DNA from: Minisyncoccota bacterium
GTDB lineage: Bacteria; Patescibacteriota; Minisyncoccia; Phycocordibacterales; UBA9973
Assembly (NCBI GenBank): GCA_018061145.1
Contig: JAGOUR010000004.1
Location: 10,625-74,624 of the forward strand
Direction: 5' to 3'
DNA: 64,000 nt
The position numbers and the translations under genes were made by a program. The notes below the pieces were generated by a model that was not told the DNA's origin, ran no database searches, and worked only from the letters and a program-made list of their open reading frames with translations. Shown here piece by piece: positions 5,045 to 58,574 of this stretch (position 1 is the stretch's first letter; each line of letters begins with the position of its first letter).

Positions 5045-5644
5045 TTATCCTATGACTTCCACTAGAGTACCACGTCGTCCAGGGATTGCGCCTTTAATGA
5101 GTAATTGGTTGTTTTCAACATCTACGCCGACCACTTTCAAGTTGCGAACTGTGATACGATCACCACCCATGCGTCCCGCCATGCGCATACCTTTTGGTAC
5201 ACGATTACGTAGACCTCCACCGATAGAACCTGGCTCACGCTCAGAGTGCTTCTGACCGTGTGTACGAGGACCTCCGGCAAAGCCGTGACGCTTCACTACA
5301 CCTTGAAAACCTTTTCCTTTTGATACACCTGATACGATAACTGTATCCCCTTTAGCAAAACTGCTAACAGTGATACGATCACCGACTGCGATTTCTTCGA
5401 TATCGCGAAACTCTCGAAGATGCTTGTAAGCACCCTCCTTAACATGGCCCAGGTGTGCTTTTGTCGCACGCTCCTTTTTCTGATCGAGGAATGCTACTTG
5501 AACAGCAGTATAGCCATCAGATTCTGGAGTCTTCACTTGAGTAACGACAATAGGACCCGCATCGATAACCGTTGCTGGAACCACTGTACCGTCCTCTTCG
5601 AAGAACTGCACCATATTCTGTTTTTTACCTAGAATAAATTTCAT
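5045..5644 (-). CDS. rplC: 50S ribosomal protein L3
   Basis: L3 family (KGKGFQGVVKRHGF). Confidence 0.9.
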   Translation of the reverse strand: MKFILGKKQNMVQFFEEDGTVVPATVIDAGPIVVTQVKTPESDGYTAVQVAFLDQKKERATKAHLGHVKEGAYKHLREFRDIEEIAVGDRITVSSFAKGDTVIVSGVSKGKGFQGVVKRHGFAGGPRTHGQKHSEREPGSIGGGLRNRVPKGMRMAGRMGGDRITVRNLKVVGVDVENNQLLIKGAIPGRRGTLVEVIG

Positions 5645-26484: not shown

Positions 26485-26643
26485 GGTAGAATCGGCTATT
26501 TTATGGTCACAAATAATTTTTCGCCGCCGCTCCAAATTTTCGCGACCCCACCTCGTGGTTTTGCATGCTTGCAAAACATCACTCCGGCTCACGAAAACGA
26601 GAAAGAGCACTTAAATAGTGCTCTTTCTAAACTCACGTTTTTG

Positions 26644-26714
26644 TGCGGGATAGGAGAATCGAACTCCTGTCTCATCCTTGGCAAGGACGTGTTCTACCAC
26701 TAAACCAATCCCGC
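26644..26714 (-). tRNA. tRNA-Gly (anticodon GCC), CCA not encoded
   Basis: Hand-folded cloverleaf: acceptor gcgggat/atcccgc, anticodon arm cgtcc-ttGCCaa-ggatg, T-arm aggag-ttcgatt-ctcct. Confidence 0.85.
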
Positions 26715-26796
26715 ATTTGCCTATTATATTTTAAAATATATGGCTTTGTTGACACGATAAACCACTAAACCAATCCCGCATACGAAACCGAAACTG

Positions 26797-26867
26797 TCGG
26801 GGTGCAGGGAATTGAACCCTGTTCTCACGGTCCCAAACCGCGTATACTACCGGTGTACTACACCCCG
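26797..26867 (-). tRNA. tRNA-Pro (anticodon UGG), CCA not encoded
   Basis: Acceptor cggggtg/caccccg, anticodon arm cgcgg-ttTGGga-ccgtg (G37), T-arm caggg-ttcaatt-ccctg. Confidence 0.8.
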
Positions 26868-26914
26868 AAACGTCTTTCTATAGTAGCATATTTTAAACAA
26901 AAAACAATGCCCTC

Positions 26915-27322
26915 CTAAAGTATTATATTCTCCATCCTTTTTACTCTCGCTTTTCTACTCTCCAGATCCAGATAAACCACCAATATATCAAATTGCCATT
27001 CCCTATTCCCTATCCTGTTATGTATTAGATATGTCTGTATAACTCGAGCCAGTCTCTGGCGCTTCCACATGTGGACATTCTCTTCTGGTCTGAACCACCC
27101 ACTTTTAGTTTCATGTGTAACATAATCCAGATCTGATACAGATTTTGCCTTTACTTCTATAAAATATAGAGAATTCCCCTTTTCAGCTATTATATCTACC
27201 TCCCCCCATTTCTTTGTATAGTTGCGCTCCAATATAATAAAGCCATGTTTCCCGAGAAACATACAGGCTACATCTTCGCCCAATTCCCCTATTTTTTGAG
27301 TATTTGAAGTAAATTTCTTCAT
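26915..27322 (-). CDS. yraN: YraN/UPF0102 family endonuclease (PD-(D/E)xK fold)
   Basis: GELGEDVACMFLGKHGFIILERNYTKKWGEVDIIAEKGNSLYFIEVKAK matches the UPF0102 signature (GE.GE..A...L...G..IL.RN.R...GEIDII..FVEVK). Confidence 0.7.
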   Translation of the reverse strand: MKKFTSNTQKIGELGEDVACMFLGKHGFIILERNYTKKWGEVDIIAEKGNSLYFIEVKAKSVSDLDYVTHETKSGWFRPEENVHMWKRQRLARVIQTYLIHNRIGNREWQFDILVVYLDLESRKARVKRMENIIL

Positions 27323-27440
27323 CCCGTTAGAGATAGGAAGTCCTTAGACTTCCGTATCTTACTTATTAATAGTAAACAATACAAATTTATCTATATACTA
27401 TATATTATAATTAAAATAAAAACGAAACATCTCTAACGGG
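27323..27440. repeat. 118-bp MITE-like leader cassette with CCCGTTAGAGAT / ATCTCTAACGGG terminal inverted repeats, abutting the yraN start codon
   Basis: Termini at 27323-27334 and 27429-27440. Internal hairpin ggaagtc-cttag-gacttcc. Near-identical 40-nt block shared with the element at 35790..35905. Confidence 0.65.
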
Positions 27441-27815
27441 ATTCATATTGTTACATGTGTAACTAATAAAGTGTGCCACGTGAAACGTTTTTCTATTTAT
27501 TAGACATCCAAACCATTATATAATATGTCTTTCACTTAAATAGCTTGATAAATAATGGTATTATAGATATTGTCTTATCTCTTTCGTGTATGACTTTATC
27601 CAATAAAAGCCTGTCTTATAAACAATACACACATAGTTATCCACATAAATGCTTATTTTGTAGGGGATTAACCTGGGGATAAAGGGACAAATCAAGGACG
27701 TCCATTAAAATAGATCTAGTAAATTTTGTGGTCAGGCATAATTTTCTGCTGAAAATTTGCACGACCCTGGCTCACGTCGTCACGTTCCACCTCGCACAAA
27801 ATGTCCGACATTTTG

Positions 27816-27887
27816 TGCGCCTGGCAGGAATCGAACCCACATCATCGATTCCGAAGATCGATGTCCTATCCATTGAACGACAGGCGC
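27816..27887 (-). tRNA. tRNA-Arg (anticodon UCG), CCA not encoded
   Basis: Acceptor gcgcctg/caggcgc, anticodon arm tcgat-ctTCGga-atcga, T-arm gtggg-ttcgatt-cctgc (two G-U pairs). Confidence 0.75.
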
Positions 27888-28024
27888 ATAGCAATACATA
27901 TATTATACATAAATGTTGCACAATTACAAATAATCCTTTATTTTAAAGGATTATTCCCAGATAATTGCATTTTAAATAAAAAAATACTATAATCTATCTA
28001 TTGTTTAATTGACAATATACATAT

Positions 28025-28095
28025 GCGGGATTAGTTTAGTGGTAGAACTACAGTTTTCCAAACTGTTGGCAGGCGTTCGATTCGCCTATCCCGCA
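28025..28095 (+). tRNA. tRNA-Gly (anticodon UCC), CCA not encoded
   Basis: Acceptor gcgggat/atcccgc, anticodon arm acagt-ttTCCaa-actgt, T-arm aggcg-ttcgatt-cgcct. Confidence 0.85.
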
Positions 28096-28116
28096 CAGTA
28101 TTTATTAACCGTATTT

Positions 28117-50049: not shown

Positions 50050-50140
50050 TACGGGCACCTTCTCCTGGAGAGGAGAAGGGGGATTAATACGAATTAGAAT
50101 TTCCTCCTCTCCTTTCCAGGAGAGGGTCAGGGTGAGGTTG
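50050..50140. repeat. GC-rich double-hairpin element (copy 3, diverged) immediately upstream of the DUF559 gene
   Basis: ccttctcc-tggag-aggagaagg and cctctcc-tttcc-aggagagg. Confidence 0.55.
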
Positions 50141-50149
50141 ATTTATTTT

Positions 50150-50539
50150 ATGAAAAGAATCATCAACAATTTTAAGAGAAAAGAAATTAGAAAAAATCTC
50201 AGAAGAACCCAAACACCACAAGAGATAATCCTTTGGGCTCGACTCCGTAATAATCAAACAAATTTTAAATGGAAAAGGCAAGTAAGCATTGGATCATACA
50301 TTGCTGATTTTTATTGTCACAAAAAACTCCTAGTAATTGAGATTGATGGGTCACAACACCTAGAAAACAAAGAATATGACATAGAGAGGAGCAAATTTTT
50401 TCTTGATTTAGGGATTAGAACAATAAGATTTTGGAATAATGAAATTAATACAAATATAGATGGGGTGATACTAAAAATTGAGAGCGAATTAAAGAATACA
50501 CCTCACCCCAGCCCTCTCCTGAAAGGAGAGGGTGAATAA
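50150..50539 (+). CDS. DUF559 endonuclease-domain protein (Vsr-like / PD-(D/E)xK fold)
   Basis: RRTQTPQEIILWARLRN...IGSYIADFYCH...LVIEIDGSQH...DIERSKFLLDLGIRTIRFWNNE matches the DUF559 signature. The C-terminal 14 aa are encoded by a repeat hairpin. Confidence 0.65.
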   Translation: MKRIINNFKRKEIRKNLRRTQTPQEIILWARLRNNQTNFKWKRQVSIGSYIADFYCHKKLLVIEIDGSQHLENKEYDIERSKFFLDLGIRTIRFWNNEINTNIDGVILKIESELKNTPHPSPLLKGEGE

Positions 50540-50543: not shown

Positions 50544-51317
50544 TTAAATCTCTTTTTCTAATCTTTTAGCTTCGGACCAGGCAAGCTCGTAGATCTTTTT
50601 CATAGCATCGGCGATCTCGGCGGATTCTATTATAATACCTAGCTTTTCGCGCCAAGAGGCGATCATGACCTTGTTATCATAGATATTTATCTCTGGGTGG
50701 AAACCAAAACTATCAGGAACTATTACAGATTCACGCTTCTCTTCTTTATCAAGACTAGCTCGCTCGCGAGCTTCAGGTGAATCTGGGAAAATGGCACGGA
50801 TAGGAATTCCTTTTTTTGCACGCCTCTTGTAATACTCAGGGAAATAATGGGGAAGTGTCGGCTGGATATCCTCGACACTGGCATAGGCAAGAATTGTCTC
50901 ACTAGAGCTGAGAGTATCTTCATACACCTTCTGCAGTCCATCCTTTCCCTCATAAAATTTTATCTTTGGCCTATTCTCTTTATTGTGAATAGATACCAGC
51001 TCAGGAATGATCTCTTTGGCCTGCTTAAGTGCGCTCGTATATTCAGAGATCTTCTCCTCTAATATCTGCTCTATATTTTCAGGGGATTCCGCTGTGTATT
51101 CCTGCTTTGGTTCTTTGCCCGAGGTACGCACGAGCTTTTTTAATTCTAGAGATGCTAATACATGGTATGCAGTAGGGCGGTTGATACCAGCTTTGCGGGC
51201 AATCTGCGTAACGGTACCTTTTCCCAATTCCAGTAGAGCCAAATAGACTTCAATTTCTTTCTCCGAAAAGCCAATAGAAAGTAGGCTTTTTTTGATATCA
51301 AATGATGTGTTTTCCAT
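50544..51317 (-). CDS. TrmB-family transcriptional regulator
   Basis: N-terminal winged HTH EIEVYLALLELGKGTVTQIARKAGINRPTAYHVL. TrmB-like C-terminal domain. Confidence 0.7.
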   Translation of the reverse strand: MENTSFDIKKSLLSIGFSEKEIEVYLALLELGKGTVTQIARKAGINRPTAYHVLASLELKKLVRTSGKEPKQEYTAESPENIEQILEEKISEYTSALKQAKEIIPELVSIHNKENRPKIKFYEGKDGLQKVYEDTLSSSETILAYASVEDIQPTLPHYFPEYYKRRAKKGIPIRAIFPDSPEARERASLDKEEKRESVIVPDSFGFHPEINIYDNKVMIASWREKLGIIIESAEIADAMKKIYELAWSEAKRLEKEI

Positions 51318-51548
51318 CCCATTAAAAAATTAAAATAATAATGTTTATTTACAGTTTCCCGTAAGTCGATTTTCTAACGGGACAAGTATATTCATTGTAT
51401 TCCAAGCAATATATTTTGTCAATCTATATCAACAAAATTATTTAAATCTATAAAACACCCTGTTTTACAAGATTAAAATTAAAGAAATTAGTTCTGTATG
51501 CTTGACAAATATTGCATGCCTGATATTATATATATAAAATTTTAAAAC

Positions 51549-51971
51549 ATGGAACAAATAGAAAAAGGGCTCGATGACTTTCGAGTAGAAGCAGTTCGGG
51601 GTTTTTTAGGATATCAATCACTAAAGTACGATTTGTCTAAAATAACACCAATTCAAATAAAGTATTCTAGATTATGCTTTAAAAAAGAAGGATGTTTTAT
51701 CGGTGACCTCAGATTAGAAGAAGCTACTTATATTAGCGATGCGATACTTCCTAATACCGAGGTCAAAAATGTACTATTAGAGGTAGACAGAGCTGGTAAT
51801 CGGTGGCGAGTAGTCATGAAAATTAATTTTTTTGGCTTGAGCTTGTGTGTGTCCCACACGGAAGAAAAACAATTCTATCTAGTTGGAATTCCTGATAATT
51901 TTGCCCCCAGATTCAAGGTGATTTGCAGGGAAGATGACCCTAATTTTCACAGAAATGACAATCTAATTTAA
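51549..51971 (+). CDS. Hypothetical 140-aa protein
   Basis: ORF with an adequate start context. No motif recognised. Confidence 0.3.
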   Translation: MEQIEKGLDDFRVEAVRGFLGYQSLKYDLSKITPIQIKYSRLCFKKEGCFIGDLRLEEATYISDAILPNTEVKNVLLEVDRAGNRWRVVMKINFFGLSLCVSHTEEKQFYLVGIPDNFAPRFKVICREDDPNFHRNDNLI

Positions 51972-52049
51972 TTTTTCATATAGAGCAGTGGGCTAACTAC
52001 TGTTCTATATTATAAAGTTAATTTAAGTTATTATTAAATAAGTAAATAT

Positions 52050-53735
52050 ATGACAAAGCAAAATTGTAAAACATGTAGTAGCGAGTTTGAGATAAGGAAT
52101 GAGGATCTTGTTTTTTACGAGCAGATGAAAAGCCCTGCACCATTACATTGCCCTGACTGTCGGATGATGAGACGACTAGCATTTAGAAACGAGCGTACCT
52201 TGTACCGCAGAGATTGTGATCTGTGTAAAACTAGTGGAGTATCTCTATACCCAGAAGGAACAGCTTTCCCCGTGTATTGTCATAAATGCTGGTGGAGTGA
52301 TGCATGGGATCCACGCGACTTTGCAATGGACTACAACCCAAGCAGACCATTTCTTGAACAATTCAAAAAGTTACAAGCCAAAGTCCCTCGTATAGCGCTA
52401 CTAGTAATCGACTCTGTCCGATCAGACTACACAAACAATGCAGGGGAGAATAAAGATTGCTATTTAATATTTGCAGCAGAGAACAATGAGGACTGCATGT
52501 ATGGCCGTCTGGTTCAACGTTCTAAATTCTGCAATGACTGTGTCTCTACATATGACTCCGAGCTATGCTATGAATGTATCGACTGCAGGCAATGTTTCAA
52601 GTGTATGTACAGTGAACAATGTCAGTCTAGCAGTGACCTACTATTCTGCTACAACATGCGTGATTCACAAAATTGCATCCTCTGTACCAATGGTCGCCAT
52701 ATGTCGAACTCTATTTTAAATATAAAATACGATAAAGAAACTTTTGAACAAAAGAAAAGGGAAATTCTAGCGAGTCATGAGAGCATAGAGCAAGCCAAGA
52801 AACAATTTGAAGAATTAAAATCTCAATCTATTGTAAAATACGCAAGACAGACAAAATGCCACAACGTCACTGGGGACTATATGTTTAACTGCTATGACGG
52901 AATCAGGCTTTTCGACACTTCGGATTCAAAAAATTGTTCTTATATGGCTGATGCTATGGATGTAAAAGATTCTATGGATTGCAACAACTTTTATATTAAA
53001 TGTGAATTTGAATACGATATGATGGGAGTTTTAGGTGGGTCAAAAAATAAGCATGGTGTCTATGTGATGTGGTGTAACAATGCAGAATATTGTGACAGTT
53101 GCTACAATTCAAATGATCTTTTTGGGTGTATTAGACTAAACAAAGAAAGCTATTCTATCTTAAATAAAAAATATGAAAAAGAAGAATATCTAAAACTAAA
53201 AGAGCAGATAATCGAGAGTATGAAATCTGATGGAACATACGGGCAATTCTTTCCTCCAGAACTTTCTCCTTTTGGATACAATGAGACATTGGCAAAAGAA
53301 TACACTCCGATGAATAGGGAGGAGGCTCTGGCGAGAGGTTATCATTGGCAAGAAAAAAATACTGGCACATTTGGCAAGGAGACAATGAGCGAAGAGAATA
53401 TTCCGAGCTTCATAGAAAAGACTCCGGACACCATAACATCAGAGATCCTCGCCTGCAATGAATGTGGCAAGAATTATAAAATCACACAAGCAGAATTGGA
53501 TTTTTATAAACGACTAAACATCCCGATCCCGCATAAAGATTTTGAATGTCGCCACCAAGACAGGATGGGGAAAAGAAATCCGAGAAAATTATATGATGGT
53601 CAATGTATGTGTCAGACAGAAAATCATATCAATCACGAGGGCTCAAAGTGTAGCGAGATATTCAAGACGACATACAGCCCCGACAGAGGCGAGACAGTAT
53701 ATTGTGAATCATGTTACCAACAAGAAGTAGCATAA
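52050..53735 (+). CDS. Cysteine-rich 561-aa protein with duplicated terminal zinc-ribbon modules and an internal Cys-repeat array
   Basis: N-terminal CKTC...FY...P..CPDCR...RN.R.LY..DC parallels C-terminal CNEC...FY...P..ECRHQDR...RN.R.LY..QC. More than 60 Cys in total. Confidence 0.45.
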   Translation: MTKQNCKTCSSEFEIRNEDLVFYEQMKSPAPLHCPDCRMMRRLAFRNERTLYRRDCDLCKTSGVSLYPEGTAFPVYCHKCWWSDAWDPRDFAMDYNPSRPFLEQFKKLQAKVPRIALLVIDSVRSDYTNNAGENKDCYLIFAAENNEDCMYGRLVQRSKFCNDCVSTYDSELCYECIDCRQCFKCMYSEQCQSSSDLLFCYNMRDSQNCILCTNGRHMSNSILNIKYDKETFEQKKREILASHESIEQAKKQFEELKSQSIVKYARQTKCHNVTGDYMFNCYDGIRLFDTSDSKNCSYMADAMDVKDSMDCNNFYIKCEFEYDMMGVLGGSKNKHGVYVMWCNNAEYCDSCYNSNDLFGCIRLNKESYSILNKKYEKEEYLKLKEQIIESMKSDGTYGQFFPPELSPFGYNETLAKEYTPMNREEALARGYHWQEKNTGTFGKETMSEENIPSFIEKTPDTITSEILACNECGKNYKITQAELDFYKRLNIPIPHKDFECRHQDRMGKRNPRKLYDGQCMCQTENHINHEGSKCSEIFKTTYSPDRGETVYCESCYQQEVA

Positions 53736-53738
53736 ATT

Positions 53739-53768
53739 AAAATCACCCCAATATGGGGTGATTTTAAT
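53739..53768. terminator. Bidirectional terminator between the Cys-rich gene and the PG-binding protein gene
   Basis: aatcacccca-at-tggggtgatt with flanking A-run and T-run. Confidence 0.65.
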
Positions 53769-53771
53769 TTA

Positions 53772-54185
53772 TTATTTATTGTATTGTGCTCGGATCTGCG
53801 CACCAGCGATACCATCCACGGGCAAACCCTTTGAGGCTTGGAATTCACGGAGAGCTTTATCTGTCAGTGGGCCAAAGTTGTTTGTCGCTTTGTGACTAGC
53901 CAATTCTTTTGCAGCAGAACCGACGGATTTCTTTATTAAAAATTTCTGGAGAGTCGAGACATCCGCACCCTTCATACCTAGCTTCAAATTACGAACAGTG
54001 GCCTTTTTTGATTTAGCTTTTGCTTTTGGCTTTGCTGAATGGGGCGCAGTACCTACTGTGAATTTGGTTGGAGTAGGGATAAATCTTTCTGCTGAAACAA
54101 GAAGAGGTGAAACTCCTGCTAAAAATGAAGCGAATATAAAAATTGTAAATATTTTTTTAATCATTTGGTTGGAAGTCACGTGCAT
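53772..54185 (-). CDS. Peptidoglycan-binding-domain (PG_binding_1) secreted protein; start at 54164 is possible
   Basis: Signal peptide. C-terminal LKLGMKGADVSTLQKFL...LTDKALREFQASKGLPVDGIAG matches the PGBD fold. Confidence 0.6.
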   Translation of the reverse strand: MHVTSNQMIKKIFTIFIFASFLAGVSPLLVSAERFIPTPTKFTVGTAPHSAKPKAKAKSKKATVRNLKLGMKGADVSTLQKFLIKKSVGSAAKELASHKATNNFGPLTDKALREFQASKGLPVDGIAGAQIRAQYNK

Positions 54186-55257
54186 TTACTTTTAATCCTA
54201 GGTATGGATTGCTCTGTGGGCCATGGAAACCGATATGAGTATGTGGGCCTGTAGATTTACCAGTATTACCGACATATCCTATAATCTCACCCCTCTTTAC
54301 CTTATCCCCAGGTTGTACGAGAACTTTGCTCATATGACCAAATATAGCTTGTCTACCATCTGTAAAGTCGATAACCACATAAAGACCATACCCACCATTG
54401 TATCCAGTAGGGCGGGCAATCAAGACAGATCCATCATATATAGCATATATAGGTGTACCCTTTGGTGCGGCAAAGTCATAAGCATTGTCTCCGTGTAGAC
54501 CTTGAGATATGCGCCCCGTACCTCTAGGGAATGGCCAGATATAGCTACTTGAGATTGAGCCGTCTGGCTGCCCATCAGAAGCAGGCTCTTCTTTTGGCTC
54601 TTCGACTATATTTTTAACCTCTTTTACGGGGACAGCTTCTACTACGACGGGTGCTGGGGCAGGAGTTGGAGCTTGTGCTACTAGCTTTTTAGGCTGTTCG
54701 ATTAACTTTTCTGAAGAAGTAGTCTTTTTCTCTGGTGTTTTTGAAGTCACCTTGATTTCTGGAGCTTTTTCAGCCTTTTCAGTAACCTTTGGTACATTCA
54801 CAGGGATGATAGATAGGACTTGACCCACTTTTAGGACTTCGCCCTTCTTTAAGCTGGCAGCATAAACTACTGAATCCTTGGAAACCTTTAATTTTCGAGC
54901 GATGCCATCTATTGTATCTCCCTTTTTAACTACATAATTACTAATTTTCTCTGTTGTAGCGTATTTTTGAACATCATTGTTGCCGAGGAAGCCCTCTGTG
55001 GCCTCTATAGCCTGCTCACCGACAGTCCCTTGACTTAAATCTGTAACTGTATTCTTTAGTTCTGGGGTTAGATTTGATTCAAGAAGAGGGACTGTTTGCG
55101 AGTTGTGGGGCATATCACCGGTAGACTCGGGAACAACAGACGCATAGGTATCTGACCCTACAATAGCACTAAAGACATCCCCAAAAAAGCTAGCAGAGGC
55201 AGTACTAGGAGCCAGTGATACCGACAGAACAAGGGCCAAAGAAAAACAAGCTTTCAT
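54157..55257 (-). CDS. Secreted LysM-domain M23 (LytM-type) peptidoglycan endopeptidase
   Basis: Signal peptide from MKACFSLALVLSVSLAPSTASA (start 55257). LysM YVVKKGDTIDGIARKL. M23 motifs HGDNAYDF...GNTGKSTGPHTHIGF. Confidence 0.8.
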   Translation of the reverse strand: MKACFSLALVLSVSLAPSTASASFFGDVFSAIVGSDTYASVVPESTGDMPHNSQTVPLLESNLTPELKNTVTDLSQGTVGEQAIEATEGFLGNNDVQKYATTEKISNYVVKKGDTIDGIARKLKVSKDSVVYAASLKKGEVLKVGQVLSIIPVNVPKVTEKAEKAPEIKVTSKTPEKKTTSSEKLIEQPKKLVAQAPTPAPAPVVVEAVPVKEVKNIVEEPKEEPASDGQPDGSISSSYIWPFPRGTGRISQGLHGDNAYDFAAPKGTPIYAIYDGSVLIARPTGYNGGYGLYVVIDFTDGRQAIFGHMSKVLVQPGDKVKRGEIIGYVGNTGKSTGPHTHIGFHGPQSNPYLGLKVNARDFQPND

Positions 55258-55472
55258 AGTAAAAGCTTTATTTTGCAAGGCTATTTGGGGAAAATTGGCT
55301 TTCTGCTCTAGGAGCTCGTGGCGCAGATTTTCCTTTTTAGAGAAAAATGATTGCATAAGAAATGTGGGCGTACGGACAGGCGGTCATCTGAGGGAAATTA
55401 TCCACTATTCTGTATTGCAGGGGTATATTCCCCCTGTCTATATATGGTACCGCAGGGGGTATATGTAGTCAA

Positions 55473-55604: not shown

Positions 55605-58574
55605 ATGTCAGCACCACACGGACACGGAGCACCTGGGCATTCAATACCAAAGGCGCCCCCAATGGAACCAACAACAGATAGCAAAACTATTGAGAGGAGA
55701 GCTCTCATACACAAACTTGACGACGCAGATGCAGGAGCTAGAGGACGAATACTATCAGGAACTTTAAGTCCCGAAGCAGATGCAACTGCAAGAAAAACAA
55801 TTCTAGAAAACAGAGAAAAGAGAGCAGACATACTAGATGAAGAAAAAAAGGCAAATGAATTTGTAAAAAATCTGATAGAGAAAAAAAAGTCACTAAAAAC
55901 AAAGATTGATAATTTACATAAAAATATCAATGAATATAAATATCGTGATGGTTTTAAGGATGCCCTCCAACATGAACTGGATCTAGCTCATAATGATTTA
56001 CGAGAAGTTCAAGAAAACATAGAAAATAATGCTAAAAATGTACAGGACCATAAATTAAAAGAGAATTTAGATAATACAAGAAAAGAATACCTTGCGGAAT
56101 ACGAAAAACATGCAAAAAATTTAAAAAATAAAGTAGCAATAAAAAATGTAAAGACTAGACTAAGTAACATATATCAATCTACCGCAAATATTTTTCGGAA
56201 AGAGGATAACAAAAAAAATCTAAAGGGATACAAGTCAGTAGAGACATATGGAGACAAAAATCTTAGAGAGAAGAGGGCTCTATACGATGATGCGAGAGTT
56301 TTACTTGCACAAAATATGTATGAGAGAAAAGAAGAAGAATTAAATGCCTCTGGAATAGAAGCTAGTGAACAGATAAAAAAACTAAAATACTACAAAGCTA
56401 CCGAGATAATACAAAAAGTATACGTAGAAGAAAAAGCAAAAACAAGAGAAGCCATCAGCTCACTGGAGAGAACCAAGCTAGACAGACTCGGTCTTTGGTA
56501 CAGCAAACAACCCAGATGGAAAAAGGTAGCACTAGGAACTGCTCTTTTTGTTGGTGGTGGTTCAGCTTTTGCTGCTAGTATGATTGCAAAATATGGAATA
56601 GGTTGGTGTATTGCTGGTAAATTTGCAACAAGTTATGGTGTTGGGTATATCACAAATACAGCAACAGGGAAGGTGATTGATAGAATTCACAAAAAAGGTG
56701 ATAAAGATTTCAGAAATTCAATAGATAATGACAAGCTTGATTTATCGAGCAATTTTACAAGAGGTGATACTGATATGACACTCCTGGAATACGAGAGACA
56801 ACTCTCAATCATAGAAAGAAGGGAAAATGAAAAATTGCAAAAAAGGATGAGCGCAAAAATGTGGGCTGGGCTTGGTCTAGGAATAGGAGCAGGAGCATTG
56901 ACATACAACTTAATGGCAGACTGCACCTCTCCAACAACGAGAGAGATACCAATGACAAAAGGAGATCACTTTAAAGCACCGGCACCAGTTCAATTAGAAA
57001 AAACTCTCGATGAATTTGTCGTAAAAGCAGACAGGATAGAGACAGTACCTAAACCCCCAGCACCTATTAGTACAGGAGGGGATCCAGTAATGTTAAAATA
57101 CCCAGATCTAAATATCGACCAGACAGAGTTTAAAAATATGGAAGGGGGGCTAGCTACTACATCAGATTTCACTCCACATACTACAGCAGATGAATTCAAC
57201 CCAGGTAATTCAAATGCAGACCAAACACCTGCAGTAGAAAAACCAAAATACAATTTTGGAGATTATAATCCAGACGAAAGAAACCTCGACCAAGAGAACC
57301 CTGAATCTGGAGAGAGATTAGACCTACCAGAGACTCCAGGGGATGCAACAGAACCAAAAATAGGAGGTGGCACATCTGCAGAAAATACAAATACTGAATC
57401 CGGGCTCAATAATACTGCAGGCAAAGGGTTAAAAATGGACTACCATGAGACTCAGAAAATTCAAGAAAATCAATTTCAAAAAATAAAAAGTCAGATAGGT
57501 AATGAAGAGTATGAAAAGCTGATAAAAACACTAGACAATAATATGGCATTGTATAAGACAGATATCAACGAATTAAGGACAATCGCCGTAGGAGAAAATA
57601 GAGATGAATCTTTCTCGAGAGAGCTAGCCCTGAATAATGCTAGGGAACAACTCAGAGAGCAGGCGGGATTAAAAGATGCAGTGTTTAACGACAGAGGCCC
57701 ATCACGAGTAATAACATCGCAACTACCAAATGGAGAATTCCGAACGATAGTAGTCCAAGCTGCACACCATGTAAACAATATAGAAGTTGACGACCTCTTT
57801 AATACAGAAAATATCCCAGTAACAGCAGAAGAGAACGTAAAAGCAATAATAAATCAATCAAATCAAAATGCAGAAAGATTTATGGCACTCTCTGGCACAG
57901 ATGAGGGTACGATGAAATCAATACTAACCCCAAAAGATAGTAATCATATAAGAATAGTTTCAGAAAGAACATCACCAGATTTAGCTAAAGCTAGAGAAAT
58001 GATCGTCAACGACAGGATGGCTCTGAACAAAGTTATGGGAGATGATTCAGTCTCTATGGTGGGAAACTCAATGGACAGAATCTTTAAAGATTCAAATGGA
58101 GATTATCATGTATACAGAATATACGAAATAAAAGACACAACAAATATCTCAGGGCAAGAAGGAGCAGTATCAGGGTCAGGTGGAGAGAGTTCGGAGATCA
58201 ACTACCAGAATGAAGAATATAAAGTTTCAAATATCGAATCAGGACCAACTGGCATAGAAAGTGAGACTAACCTTGCCATTGAAAATATAATAAAGGAAGG
58301 GAAATACAAGGATATAGTTAAAAACGTAGAAATGCTTGGTTATACATTTGAGGGGTCTCGCAGTGCAGATGTTACTGTTCTAAAATTCCTAGAATCTTAC
58401 AAGTCTGGTGAATACACATTAGCAATAGACTCAGCAGATGCTCCTACACATGATCTTGCGTCTCAAGCAATTAGCCAGAGACAAGGCTTCGTAAACACAG
58501 CAGAAAAAATGAATCTATGGAAAAAAACTGACAGTGGATATCATATGATTTCTATTCGTTTAATCAAAAAATAA
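55605..58574 (+). CDS. Large (989 aa) coiled-coil membrane protein, hypothetical
   Basis: ~300-aa K/E-rich coiled-coil N-region. Two Gly-rich TM hairpins (WKKVALGTALFVGGGSAFAASMIAKYGIGWCIAG; MWAGLGLGIGAGALTYNLMA). ~540-aa C-terminal region with no known domain. Confidence 0.45.
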   Translation: MSAPHGHGAPGHSIPKAPPMEPTTDSKTIERRALIHKLDDADAGARGRILSGTLSPEADATARKTILENREKRADILDEEKKANEFVKNLIEKKKSLKTKIDNLHKNINEYKYRDGFKDALQHELDLAHNDLREVQENIENNAKNVQDHKLKENLDNTRKEYLAEYEKHAKNLKNKVAIKNVKTRLSNIYQSTANIFRKEDNKKNLKGYKSVETYGDKNLREKRALYDDARVLLAQNMYERKEEELNASGIEASEQIKKLKYYKATEIIQKVYVEEKAKTREAISSLERTKLDRLGLWYSKQPRWKKVALGTALFVGGGSAFAASMIAKYGIGWCIAGKFATSYGVGYITNTATGKVIDRIHKKGDKDFRNSIDNDKLDLSSNFTRGDTDMTLLEYERQLSIIERRENEKLQKRMSAKMWAGLGLGIGAGALTYNLMADCTSPTTREIPMTKGDHFKAPAPVQLEKTLDEFVVKADRIETVPKPPAPISTGGDPVMLKYPDLNIDQTEFKNMEGGLATTSDFTPHTTADEFNPGNSNADQTPAVEKPKYNFGDYNPDERNLDQENPESGERLDLPETPGDATEPKIGGGTSAENTNTESGLNNTAGKGLKMDYHETQKIQENQFQKIKSQIGNEEYEKLIKTLDNNMALYKTDINELRTIAVGENRDESFSRELALNNAREQLREQAGLKDAVFNDRGPSRVITSQLPNGEFRTIVVQAAHHVNNIEVDDLFNTENIPVTAEENVKAIINQSNQNAERFMALSGTDEGTMKSILTPKDSNHIRIVSERTSPDLAKAREMIVNDRMALNKVMGDDSVSMVGNSMDRIFKDSNGDYHVYRIYEIKDTTNISGQEGAVSGSGGESSEINYQNEEYKVSNIESGPTGIESETNLAIENIIKEGKYKDIVKNVEMLGYTFEGSRSADVTVLKFLESYKSGEYTLAIDSADAPTHDLASQAISQRQGFVNTAEKMNLWKKTDSGYHMISIRLIKK

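Follow-up and report, generated by a model that had tools for sequence, protein, structure and literature searches.

A cysteine-rich protein of 561 amino acids (aa), encoded at 52050..53735 on the forward strand of a 64,000-nucleotide (nt) stretch of contig JAGOUR010000004.1 from a Minisyncoccota bacterium (the whole of this stretch is hereafter called the window, and the protein the target), is well supported as a pseudo-symmetric scaffold protein with a two-finger module at each end. Its centre is predicted to be a narrow beta-solenoid of 12-residue coils, made up of two halves that are homologous to each other. Relatives of the target form a large family in Patescibacteria, are often arrayed in tandem, and recur beside genes for TrmB-family regulators and, in many loci, for ATPases of the VirD4/TrwB type. 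We propose, with a probability of roughly 35%, that the target could be an adaptor or client of such a coupling-type ATPase, with constant ends, a variable middle and TrmB-controlled expression. The gene and its domains, in order, are:

52050..53735, forward strand: target open reading frame (ORF), with an ATG start, 561 aa and a stop codon (ORF listing)
52050..52334, forward strand: N-terminal two-finger zinc module, aa 1-95 (family hits of relatives, ligand conservation)
52335..52424, forward strand: linker 1, aa 96-125, with an AlphaFold2 (AF2) helix at 101-111 (predicted local distance difference test score, pLDDT, 97) and conserved D96, F101, F102, Q104, L108 and P113
52425..52733, forward strand: predicted beta-solenoid half 1, aa 126-228, with some 8-9 twelve-residue coils (Cys periodicity, AF2 strands, Foldseek)
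52734..52835, forward strand: predicted helical hairpin between the solenoid halves, aa 229-262 (AF2 helices 229-239 and 243-257)
52836..53177, forward strand: predicted beta-solenoid half 2, aa 263-376 (HHalign against half 1, AF2 strands of period 12)
53178..53444, forward strand: predicted helix, aa 377-394, and conserved linker 2, aa 396-465 (AF2 pLDDT 90-98)
53445..53732, forward strand: C-terminal two-finger zinc module, aa 466-561 (HHalign duplicate of the N-terminal module, ligand table)

The ORF exists as a preliminary description of the window had given it, and it is indeed rich in Cys: 38 of its 561 residues (6.8%) are Cys, 11 times the window median of 0.59%, and among the window's 46 non-overlapping ORFs with 150 aa or more it ranks first (the runner-up reaches 2.7%). 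The same description had counted more than 40 Cys between the termini, more than the 38 of the whole protein, of which 8 fall in aa 1-95, 22 in aa 96-465 and 8 in aa 466-561. As no hydrophobic segment is found in the target (top 19-aa hydropathy 0.73), the protein would be soluble and cytoplasmic. A database entry identical to the target, named 'hypothetical protein, Candidatus Pacebacteria bacterium', comes from a metagenome-assembled genome (MAG).

The zinc-binding character that had been suggested for both termini is borne out by the finger families found in relatives and by the conservation of the ligands. Out of 56 relatives, 21 match PF13451 (zf_Tbcl, best E-value 1e-7), which covers the first finger, 20 match PF23477 (zf_Tbcl_2, best E 9e-10), which covers the second, and 12 match TIGR04272, 'CxxC-x17-CxxC' (best E 4e-8). 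The alignments to these relatives span residues 2-41 for PF13451 and 48-81 for PF23477; one of them (P0041) scores 32.1 bits for PF13451, against a cut-off of 24 bits, at residues 2-41, equivalent to residues 4-41 of the target. The target itself is under threshold for all three models, with no match to PF13451 at E<=10 and 14.4 bits for PF23477 at residues 533-559 (cut-off 27 bits). Judged by these profile scores, membership in the finger families holds at the level of the family only.

Finger 1 (ligands C6, C9, C34 and C37) is of the treble-clef type of PF13451, and finger 2 (C56, C59, C77 and C80) of the PF23477/TIGR04272 type, with the exact CxxC-x17-CxxC spacing. After the knuckles, the N-terminal module has a conserved Arg-rich helix (CR..RR...RNER.LY.R), followed by a Trp cluster (CWWSD.WDP). 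In the C-terminal module, finger 3 is degenerate in the target's clade, the candidate ligands being C469, C472 and C500 with H502 or D497: its second CxxC is missing in the target, where the sequence reads D497-F-E-C500-R-H502, and position 497 is Cys in 68% of the family. Finger 4 has C519, C534, C552 and C555 as ligands. The first knuckle of this last finger (residues 519-534, nt 53604-53651) holds a 12-residue insert (MCQTENHINHEG) with C521, H526 and H529; the insert occurs in 35 of the 56 relatives, and these three residues are conserved where it exists. It could make an extra, fifth metal site.

Because the terminal ligands are conserved at 79-100% overall across the family (93-100% for finger 1, 79-98% for finger 2), the fingers of the target would bind zinc, presumably at four structural sites per protein, the third of which is degenerate in the target's clade. 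Zinc binding by the TIGR04272 domain has been established by inductively coupled plasma mass spectrometry in two small proteins of Methanosarcina mazei (PMC12704099). Stand-alone phage proteins named 'zinc-ribbon domain' superpose on the fingers with root-mean-square deviations of 0.5-0.8 A over about 40 residues.

The preliminary description had called the two termini near-duplicates. They are homologous, the N- and C-terminal modules aligning between residues 6-81 and 469-556 in BLASTP (27% identity, pairwise E 2e-11) and their family profiles aligning over 79 columns in HHalign (29% identity, probability 99.8%, E 2.8e-29), but an identity of only 27-29% does not make them near-duplicates. 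The motif that had been written for both ends finds no regular-expression hit at either one, because the N-terminal spacing is off by one and the C-terminal copy has Tyr for Phe and has lost its second CxxC; a relaxed pattern fits residues 6-56 and 469-519.

Like the M. mazei proteins and the members of PF13451, PF23477 and TIGR04272, the target has these finger types at its termini, there in tandem. Those families are single small domains whose function is uncharacterised, whereas the target has two pairs of fingers capping a centre of about 370 aa that lies outside any library. LIM domains (CRP1/CRP2) also have two consecutive zinc fingers, and an alignment (W..C..C....YC..CY) pairs the second of these with the second finger of the C-terminal module. 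The E-values against PDB sequences are not significant (0.07-0.4), however, and the spacer is of 2 residues in LIM domains and of about 18, including the Arg-rich helix, in the target.

The Cys of the centre had been described as irregular CxxC and CxC repeats; periods of 3 and 12 are found instead. Across the family, Cys frequency has a sharp period of 3, in one register over residues 137-212 and nested in a period of 12, and in half 1 of the target 13 of 13 Cys fall in a single phase modulo 3, which would happen by chance at about 2e-6. Per coil, the consensus reads [S/N]-[K/E]-[D/N]-C-x-[Y/D]-C-x-x-C-x-x. HHalign shows half 1 (118-228) and half 2 (262-376) to be homologous (probability 99.8%, E 2e-30), and each is closed by a family consensus ...C.NLRNK.Y.I.N.QYSKEEY, the end of half 2 being the family signature FGC.GL.K..YCILNKQYSKEEY. 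Between them, the helical hairpin is the most variable part of the family (top column entropy 2.25); beyond them, linker 2 carries the motif G.FFP...SPFGYNE..A....P...G..W, with conserved columns at G398, F400, F401, P402, Y410, N411, E412, P420 and W433.

The full-length AF2 model, made from a 56-sequence alignment, has a pLDDT of 86.4, a predicted template modelling score of 0.85 and strands every 12 residues, and a model of the centre only has a pLDDT of 86-93 over the repeats and about 8-9 coils in each half. Searched against the PDB with Foldseek, the full model finds LpxA, GlmU and gamma-carbonic anhydrase at E 0.3 or worse, and the centre model finds AlgE4, tailspikes, polygalacturonases and AlbG, with a best E of 7e-4. 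The top matches are essentially all beta-helix or beta-solenoid proteins, at probabilities of 0.3 or less and with one match alone at E<1e-3. These models and matches support a beta-solenoid as the predicted fold class, with no specific relative within it.

How the central Cys behave in evolution was assessed in 343 homologs (effective number 163), of which only 14-95% have Cys at a given central Cys position, with Ser, Val, Leu, Thr, Met and Ile as alternatives. The homologs have between 9 and 37 central Cys each, an even number in 48% of cases, so that there is no parity bias. Co-occurrence of Cys pairs is weak (maximum phi 0.36, mean -0.15 for i/i+6), and there are no obligate pairs or quartets. 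Obligate disulfides and Cys4 sites in the centre were rejected, as this co-variation and parity argue against them. Even the stretch C173-C185, which reads CxxCxxCxxCxxC without Pro, has Cys at each position in only 43-73% of the family.

Because the inward positions, every third one of the solenoid, hold Cys, Ser or small hydrophobic residues, the central Cys are in the predicted structure inward-facing residues that pack the core, not sets of ligands. These data do not bear out the suggestion of a CxxC/CxC array that buffers metals or redox or forms a string of zinc fingers: the Cys are freely substituted, do not co-vary and occupy every third position of the predicted solenoid. A clear match to a radical-SAM or 4Fe-4S family, which the preliminary description had named as an explanation that would overturn its own, was looked for and not found, there being no Fer4, Radical_SAM or SPASM match at E<=10 in the target nor any among the matches of the 56 relatives. 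As regards metallothioneins and Csp, bulky Val, Leu, Ile and Met replace Cys, occupancies are near independent, and neither the target nor the 56 relatives match a metallothionein family. Pfam matches to the Hexapep and Pentapeptide models are likewise absent from the target and its relatives. For annotation, this case is a warning that a high Cys content and CxxC spacing alone are no proof of metal clusters.

Stacked coils and regular strands are what the predicted centre shares with right-handed beta-helices (AlgE4, P22 tailspike, polygalacturonases), with the pentapeptide protein AlbG and with the left-handed LpxA and gamma-carbonic anhydrase. Those proteins differ in having hydrophobic cores and longer coils, of 18-22 residues or more; the target would have 12-residue coils, a Cys/Ser core and halves split by a hairpin. 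Left-handed and pentapeptide coils, in particular, have 18 and 20 residues against 12 in the target, and the Foldseek matches to them come at E 1.7e-3 with a template modelling score (TM-score) of about 0.1 for the centre model. The antifreeze protein TmAFP of Tenebrio molitor (PDB 1EZG) has the repeat TCTxSxxCxxAx, in which the inward positions at every third residue are Cys, Ser or Ala. It resembles the predicted centre in its 12-residue coil and every-third inward positions, and it is the sole non-finger match of the family profile to PDB sequences (residues 148-216), at a non-significant E of 2.7; 1EZG is absent from the best 50 Foldseek matches of the centre model. TmAFP is secreted and has obligate i/i+6 disulfides, unlike the presumably cytoplasmic target, in whose family i/i+6 Cys are anti-correlated and parity is random. 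Homology to TmAFP was dropped on that E-value and on the absence among the best 50 matches, and the likeness would be an analogy of periodicity at most.

The statement in the preliminary description that no characterised family has this layout stands, as searches of Pfam, NCBIfam and PDB sequences with the whole protein and its centre returned nothing significant, nor did a comparison of the family profile with PDB sequences. With the target and the 56 relatives as queries, Pfam, NCBIfam, PADLOC and PHROGs gave only the finger families and one PHROG, and nothing over the whole centre. PADLOC contributed a marginal local match to NsnC (PDLC03898, E 8e-4, residues 181-267). The NsnC of Menshen consists of an inactive-PIN N-domain and a BECR RNase C-domain (PMC12065111); it has no such repeats and is encoded with NsnA and NsnB. 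An identity with NsnC was rejected on this unrelated architecture, and no ParB/DUF262 or ABC-ATPase partner lies near the target. One Kerfeldbacteria member is called 'CaiB/BaiF family protein' in UniRef, probably a misannotation inherited from a different record, no CoA-transferase family being matched anywhere.

Word-indexed homologs of the target number 3,326, and clustering at 50% identity gives 3,524 clusters at E<1e-3, 2,622 at E<1e-10 and 1,414 at E<1e-30. Even at identities as low as 35%, nearly all of the homologs listed have the full length of about 550-600 aa. Their named sources are all Patescibacteria (Paceibacteria, Nomura-, Staskawicz-, Magasanik- and Kerfeldbacteria) or an unclassified 'bacterium', with one exception: a locus of 3.4 kb (L061, CAZUOS010000216.1; the L numbers are our labels for loci), from a MAG labelled 'uncultured Azospirillum sp.', which has a 58%-identical member and a TrmB gene. 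The Azospirillum label is probably an artefact of binning or labelling, and we see in it no evidence for the family outside Patescibacteria. Many of the third-party-annotation MAGs labelled 'Candidatus Saccharibacteria' in the list to which this locus belongs also look generically named.

A phage family whose function is unassigned, phrog_15341, has matches in 25 of the 56 relatives, in their second solenoid half (best E 3e-10; region 244-368 of the target, E 7e-8). No relatives were found by tblastn in 50,697 phage records, nor in a scan of IMG/VR contigs, and a phage origin was rejected on these searches. In the literature on PF13451, on Cys-rich families of the Candidate Phyla Radiation and on zinc-ribbon or beta-helix paralogs of Patescibacteria, we found no description of the family.

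Two kinds of neighbours recur beside members of this family, the first of them being TrmB. Of about 80 orthologous loci, 44 have a TrmB gene at position -1 or -2, and in nearly every locus that contains one there is a family copy at most 1.5 kb from it (46/47 loci from GTDB genomes, 10/10 from metagenomes). TrmB also adjoins the family in distant loci (L086, L091, L088, L154, L126 and L166), one of which, L091, repeats the divergent arrangement found in the window. The TrmBs of these loci are full-length homologs with 24-38% identity, which parallels the divergence of the family. Among orthologs, median identity is 61% for the target, 64% for TrmB, 79% for ComM and 34% for the M23 peptidase, which points to marked purifying selection on the target, about as conserved as TrmB.

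Copy number differs widely between lineages. The window has one family copy, and about 10 of the 80 GTDB loci of the target's clade have a second copy alongside (34-44% identical). More distant lineages usually have arrays: of the metagenome loci of at least 10 kb, 28/42 have at least two copies and 16/42 at least three. Larger arrays include L086 (TrmB, then at least 9 copies), L115 (11 copies), L126 (9-10 copies) and L154, where 21.7 kb are made up of 13 same-strand copies alone, both end ones truncated, with one TrmB embedded. As paralogs within arrays are only 31-59% identical, the duplications would, by this divergence, be old and maintained. Identity within arrays is unequally spread along the protein: 42-56% in the N-terminal zinc module and 45-56% in the C-terminal one, 33-41% in the solenoid halves and 17-34% in the hairpin. 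Some array members are split into two ORFs for the N- and C-terminal parts, at 5368-5544 and 5544-6962 in L086 and into pieces of 310 and 263 aa in L126, and these may be frameshifted pseudogenes or sequencing errors in arrays that are intact elsewhere.

The second recurrent neighbour is a P-loop ATPase. When the neighbours of diverse loci were clustered, one non-family group dominated, with 33 members in 23 of 87 loci, and these proteins carry the domains PF10412 (TrwB_AAD_bind), PF12696 (TraG-D_C) and PF01935 (DUF87/HerA). The long form of this ATPase (613-733 aa) adds PF23477, at 36-56 bits against the cut-off of 27 bits, and the C-terminal module of the target aligns to this ATPase finger with E down to 3e-7 (BLAST). 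Linkage to the family is tight: the distance to the nearest family copy has a median of 68 bp, 29 of 31 have the same orientation, 21 of 29 adjoin a family copy directly, and the order ATPase (long), four family copies, ATPase (short), two family copies recurs. Besides the zinc finger, the neighbour ATPases carry a low-complexity tail, and no transmembrane segment was found in them. The ATPase is often preceded by a 462-aa protein that matches no Pfam family and has a membrane anchor at its N-terminus, as in the following loci:

L173 8595-9983; L117 2373-3758; L148 1617-3014; L155 56-1477: membrane-anchored protein of about 462 aa upstream of a finger-bearing ATPase

In two loci, L048 and L171, the ATPase is longer (935 aa and 733 aa) and aligns in its N-terminal region with the soluble part of this protein, which suggests a fusion there. 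Within the target's class, a Staskawiczbacteria contig of 737,971 bp has at one end the 462-aa protein, the ATPase with its finger and four family copies in a row; L059, from a Staskawiczbacteria contig of equal length, carries a 59%-identical ortholog of the target. Should the two contigs be one, a single genome of this class would have both kinds of context. In five loci (L099, L100, L116, L145 and L157) dnaK lies between the family copies and the finger-bearing ATPase, encoding an Hsp70 of 627-642 aa (L100, and L116 as cluster representative), and a short opposite-strand gene just upstream of dnaK in this group may be grpE. This embedding of dnaK may be lineage synteny or a chaperone connection.

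The finger-bearing ATPase is ubiquitous in Patescibacteria (at least 8,000 matches), under record names such as 'type IV secretion system DNA-binding domain-containing protein' as well as 'CxxC-x17-CxxC domain-containing protein'. A survey published in 2025 counted 5,713 VirD4-type genes in 2,918 Patescibacteria genomes, only 148 of them near virB4, and its authors suggest exaptation (PMC12102498). [quoted passage not shown] Compared with T4CPs (VirD4/TrwB/TraG/PcfC, with relaxosome proteins and DotL-IcmSW), the likeness is that many family arrays directly adjoin ATPases with TrwB_AAD_bind and TraG-D_C domains. The differences are that these ATPases are soluble, with a zinc finger and a low-complexity tail, and have a separate membrane-anchored protein ahead of them; the family, moreover, resembles no known T4CP substrate or adaptor, and the ATPase adjacency is absent from the window.

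The adaptor or client role is favoured because the termini are the best conserved parts within arrays and the hairpin and solenoid the most divergent. On this reading the conserved zinc-finger ends would be constant handles docking on a common partner, and the divergent solenoid surfaces and the helical hairpin would give each paralog its own specificity. The common partner would most likely be the soluble VirD4/TrwB/HerA-like ATPase with its CxxC-x17-CxxC finger, so that the family would be adaptors or clients (cargo) of an 'orphan' translocase of the coupling-protein type. In the target's lineage, the single copy would probably be expressed from a promoter divergent to that of TrmB, together with a small ORF of 140 aa that precedes it.

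Several observations weigh against this proposal. The window of 64 kb has no such ATPase, and none lies nearby in 84 of 85 loci of the target's clade; single-copy orthologs linked to TrmB may thus differ in role from copies linked to the ATPase. The ATPase-linked loci are not fully independent, their ATPases forming two main clusters at 60% identity, and the link between protein and ATPase consists of gene adjacency and a shared finger type. Each zinc module has a net charge of 0 and the target overall is net acidic, an uncommon feature in a nucleic-acid binder. For the solenoid, which is a predicted one, TM-scores to real beta-helices are about 0.1, and the pLDDT of the full-length model is just 63-77 at the N-terminal part of each half. 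Between the two variants of the proposal, adaptor and cargo, present evidence makes no distinction.

A bolder form of the adaptor or client proposal, which we regard as rather doubtful when taken as a whole, would make the family the missing partners of thousands of orphan VirD4-like ATPases. The membrane protein, the finger-bearing hexameric ATPase and the solenoid arrays would then form an unrecognised translocation or remodelling machine specific to ultra-small episymbionts, in which the paralogs would be interchangeable substrate-recognition adaptors or exported cargo, and the solenoid would be a new bacterial fold type.

The adjacency to ATPases could also reflect a shared DNA substrate, if the target were a stand-alone nucleic-acid binder or regulator in which terminal modules spaced by a rigid solenoid clamp DNA or RNA, the paralogs differing in their targets. 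Nucleic-acid binding, which the preliminary description had suggested, may apply to the terminal fingers. This explanation draws on the treble-clef and zinc-ribbon folds of the fingers, on the conserved Arg-rich helices past the second knuckle (R38, R41, R42, R46 and R54 at one end, R501, R505 and R517 at the other) and on the neighbour ATPase family (TrwB/FtsK/HerA), whose members are DNA translocases. Neighbours of the family are, in addition, often RNA or DNA enzymes (CCA-adding enzyme, tRNA U5-methyltransferase, TrmD, PolA), but such genes dominate tiny genomes anyway and none of them recurs across lineages. As the neutral zinc modules and the acidity of the whole protein also argue against it, and as LIM-like double fingers typically bind proteins (the LIM match itself not being significant), we consider it unlikely.

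If the clients were instead exported, the paralogs could be effectors delivered by the coupling-type ATPase through the patescibacterial T4SS into host cells, which is a special case of the client variant. Coupling-protein genes typically lie beside their own substrates (PMC12102498), the arrays, with as many as 13 divergent paralogs, look like effector repertoires, and the T4SSs needed, lacking relaxases, are widespread in these bacteria (PMC12102498). Set against this, the ATPases are soluble; no relaxase, virB4 or other T4SS gene is found among the recurrent neighbours examined; and most such ATPase genes are far from virB4 (PMC12102498). The predicted fold, moreover, is tight and zinc-stabilised, with a conserved and structured C-terminus rather than a disordered secretion signal, and orthologs appear to be under marked purifying selection, unlike most effectors. 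Such a role seems quite improbable to us.

Diversified tandem arrays and the HerA-like domain of the ATPase would also suit a conflict or defence module, in which the ATPase would act with arrays of diversified sensors or decoys against phages or competitors, and the matches of the centre to phrog_15341 (25/56 members) and, weakly, to the PADLOC model NsnC (E 8e-4) point the same way. The NsnC match is marginal and to an unrelated architecture (PMC12065111), however, and the tblastn search of phage genomes and the scan of viral contigs brought up no relatives. The paralogs, furthermore, appear ancient (31-50% identity) and the orthologs stably syntenic and conserved, which does not fit an arms race, and no nuclease, toxin or other effector domain recurs nearby, so that we hold this to be very unlikely.

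Least probable of all, and by our estimate highly so, is the earlier suggestion of a metal or redox buffer, in which a Cys-lined solenoid interior would store soft metals (in the manner of metallothioneins or Csp) or buffer thiol redox: the Cys content of 6.8%, 11 times the window median, the lining of the predicted interior by Cys, and the tolerance of metallothionein-type proteins for a variable Cys number, by which weak positional conservation is no full exclusion, are outweighed by a core that is as open to the bulky Val, Leu, Ile and Met, with which a metal channel would be blocked, as it is to Ser, by the lack of co-varying Cys sets or pairs and the existence of homologs with only 9 central Cys, by the absence of Fer4, radical-SAM or metallothionein matches in the target and 56 relatives, by an adjacent TrmB that has 0 Cys and so is no thiol sensor, and by ancient, 40%-identical paralogs unlike the near-identical amplifications of metal-stress genes.

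The finger families of the end domains (functionally uncharacterised) and the fold class of the centre were already known. Three features turned up nowhere in the libraries and publications searched: the overall architecture, a 12-residue solenoid with a Cys core, and a genomic arrangement with TrmB and orphan ATPases of the coupling type. No Pfam or NCBIfam model covers the family centre, and no characterised system resembles the family beyond domain-level analogy. Patescibacteria make up a large share of bacterial diversity, with genomes of about 1 Mb in which about half of the genes are without known function. Here a large family specific to this lineage, with at least 1,400 clusters at 50% identity, is still nameless, and some genomes spend at least 21 kb on one array, which would be about 2% of a genome of about 1 Mb. 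Its links to TrmB and to VirD4-like ATPases give a testable lead on the role of the orphan ATPases, and a cytoplasmic beta-solenoid with 12-residue coils, a Cys/Ser core and zinc-finger caps would, if true, be a new type of scaffold.

Around the target, the window contains a TrmB gene on one side and cell-wall hydrolase genes on the other, in agreement with the preliminary description:

50544..51317, reverse strand: TrmB-family regulator, 257 aa, 0 Cys (PF01978, E 9e-17)
51422-51394, reverse strand: promoter-like site TTGACA-17-TACAAT, facing trmB (11/12 consensus)
51502-51529, forward strand: promoter-like site TTGACA-16-TATTAT with a TG extension, facing the 140-aa ORF and the target (11/12 consensus)
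51549..51971, forward strand: small upstream ORF of 140 aa, between trmB and the target (ORF listing)
51965-52023: inverted repeat between the stop of the 140-aa ORF and the start of the target, with 25-nt arms, 80% complementary
53732..53772, no strand: bidirectional terminator-like hairpin with a 19-bp stem and a 3-nt loop, overlapping the target stop
53772-54185, reverse strand: PG_binding_1 protein (Pfam)
54157-55356, reverse strand: LysM and M23 peptidase protein (Pfam)

The divergent promoter-like region spans 51394..51529; promoter-like sites overall are not above shuffle expectation, so that only the positions of these two are suggestive. A palindrome at 51441-51477 was considered as a TrmB operator and is not conserved in 51 comparable intergenic regions, where only promoter-like words recur. 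The 140-aa ORF, which has no Pfam, PHROG or PADLOC match, is probably co-transcribed with the target; in related genomes its slot holds unrelated small genes, several of them acylphosphatase-like. No conserved operon partner emerged in the target's clade, since this slot varies and the M23 peptidase and CCA-adding enzyme represent only clade-level synteny. Downstream, a terminator scan shows the hairpin to be common to the target and the convergent PG-binding gene.

Beyond the M23 gene, an ORF of 989 aa at 55605-58574 (forward strand), rich in Lys, Glu and Asn and with no Pfam family, may be a conserved neighbour, as the related locus L001 has a 969-aa gene at the same position. Further away, at 26643-28096, there are four tRNA genes, Gly-GCC, Pro-TGG, Arg-TCG (-), Gly-TCC (+), and beyond this cluster no Rfam family was detected in the window at gathering score. 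Between ComM and TrmB, at 50132-50539 (forward strand), lies a DUF559 / REase_MTES_1575-like gene (Vsr-type endonuclease fold). This slot may be a small insertion point, variable or mobile, given that an unrelated 158-aa gene takes it up in the close relative L001.

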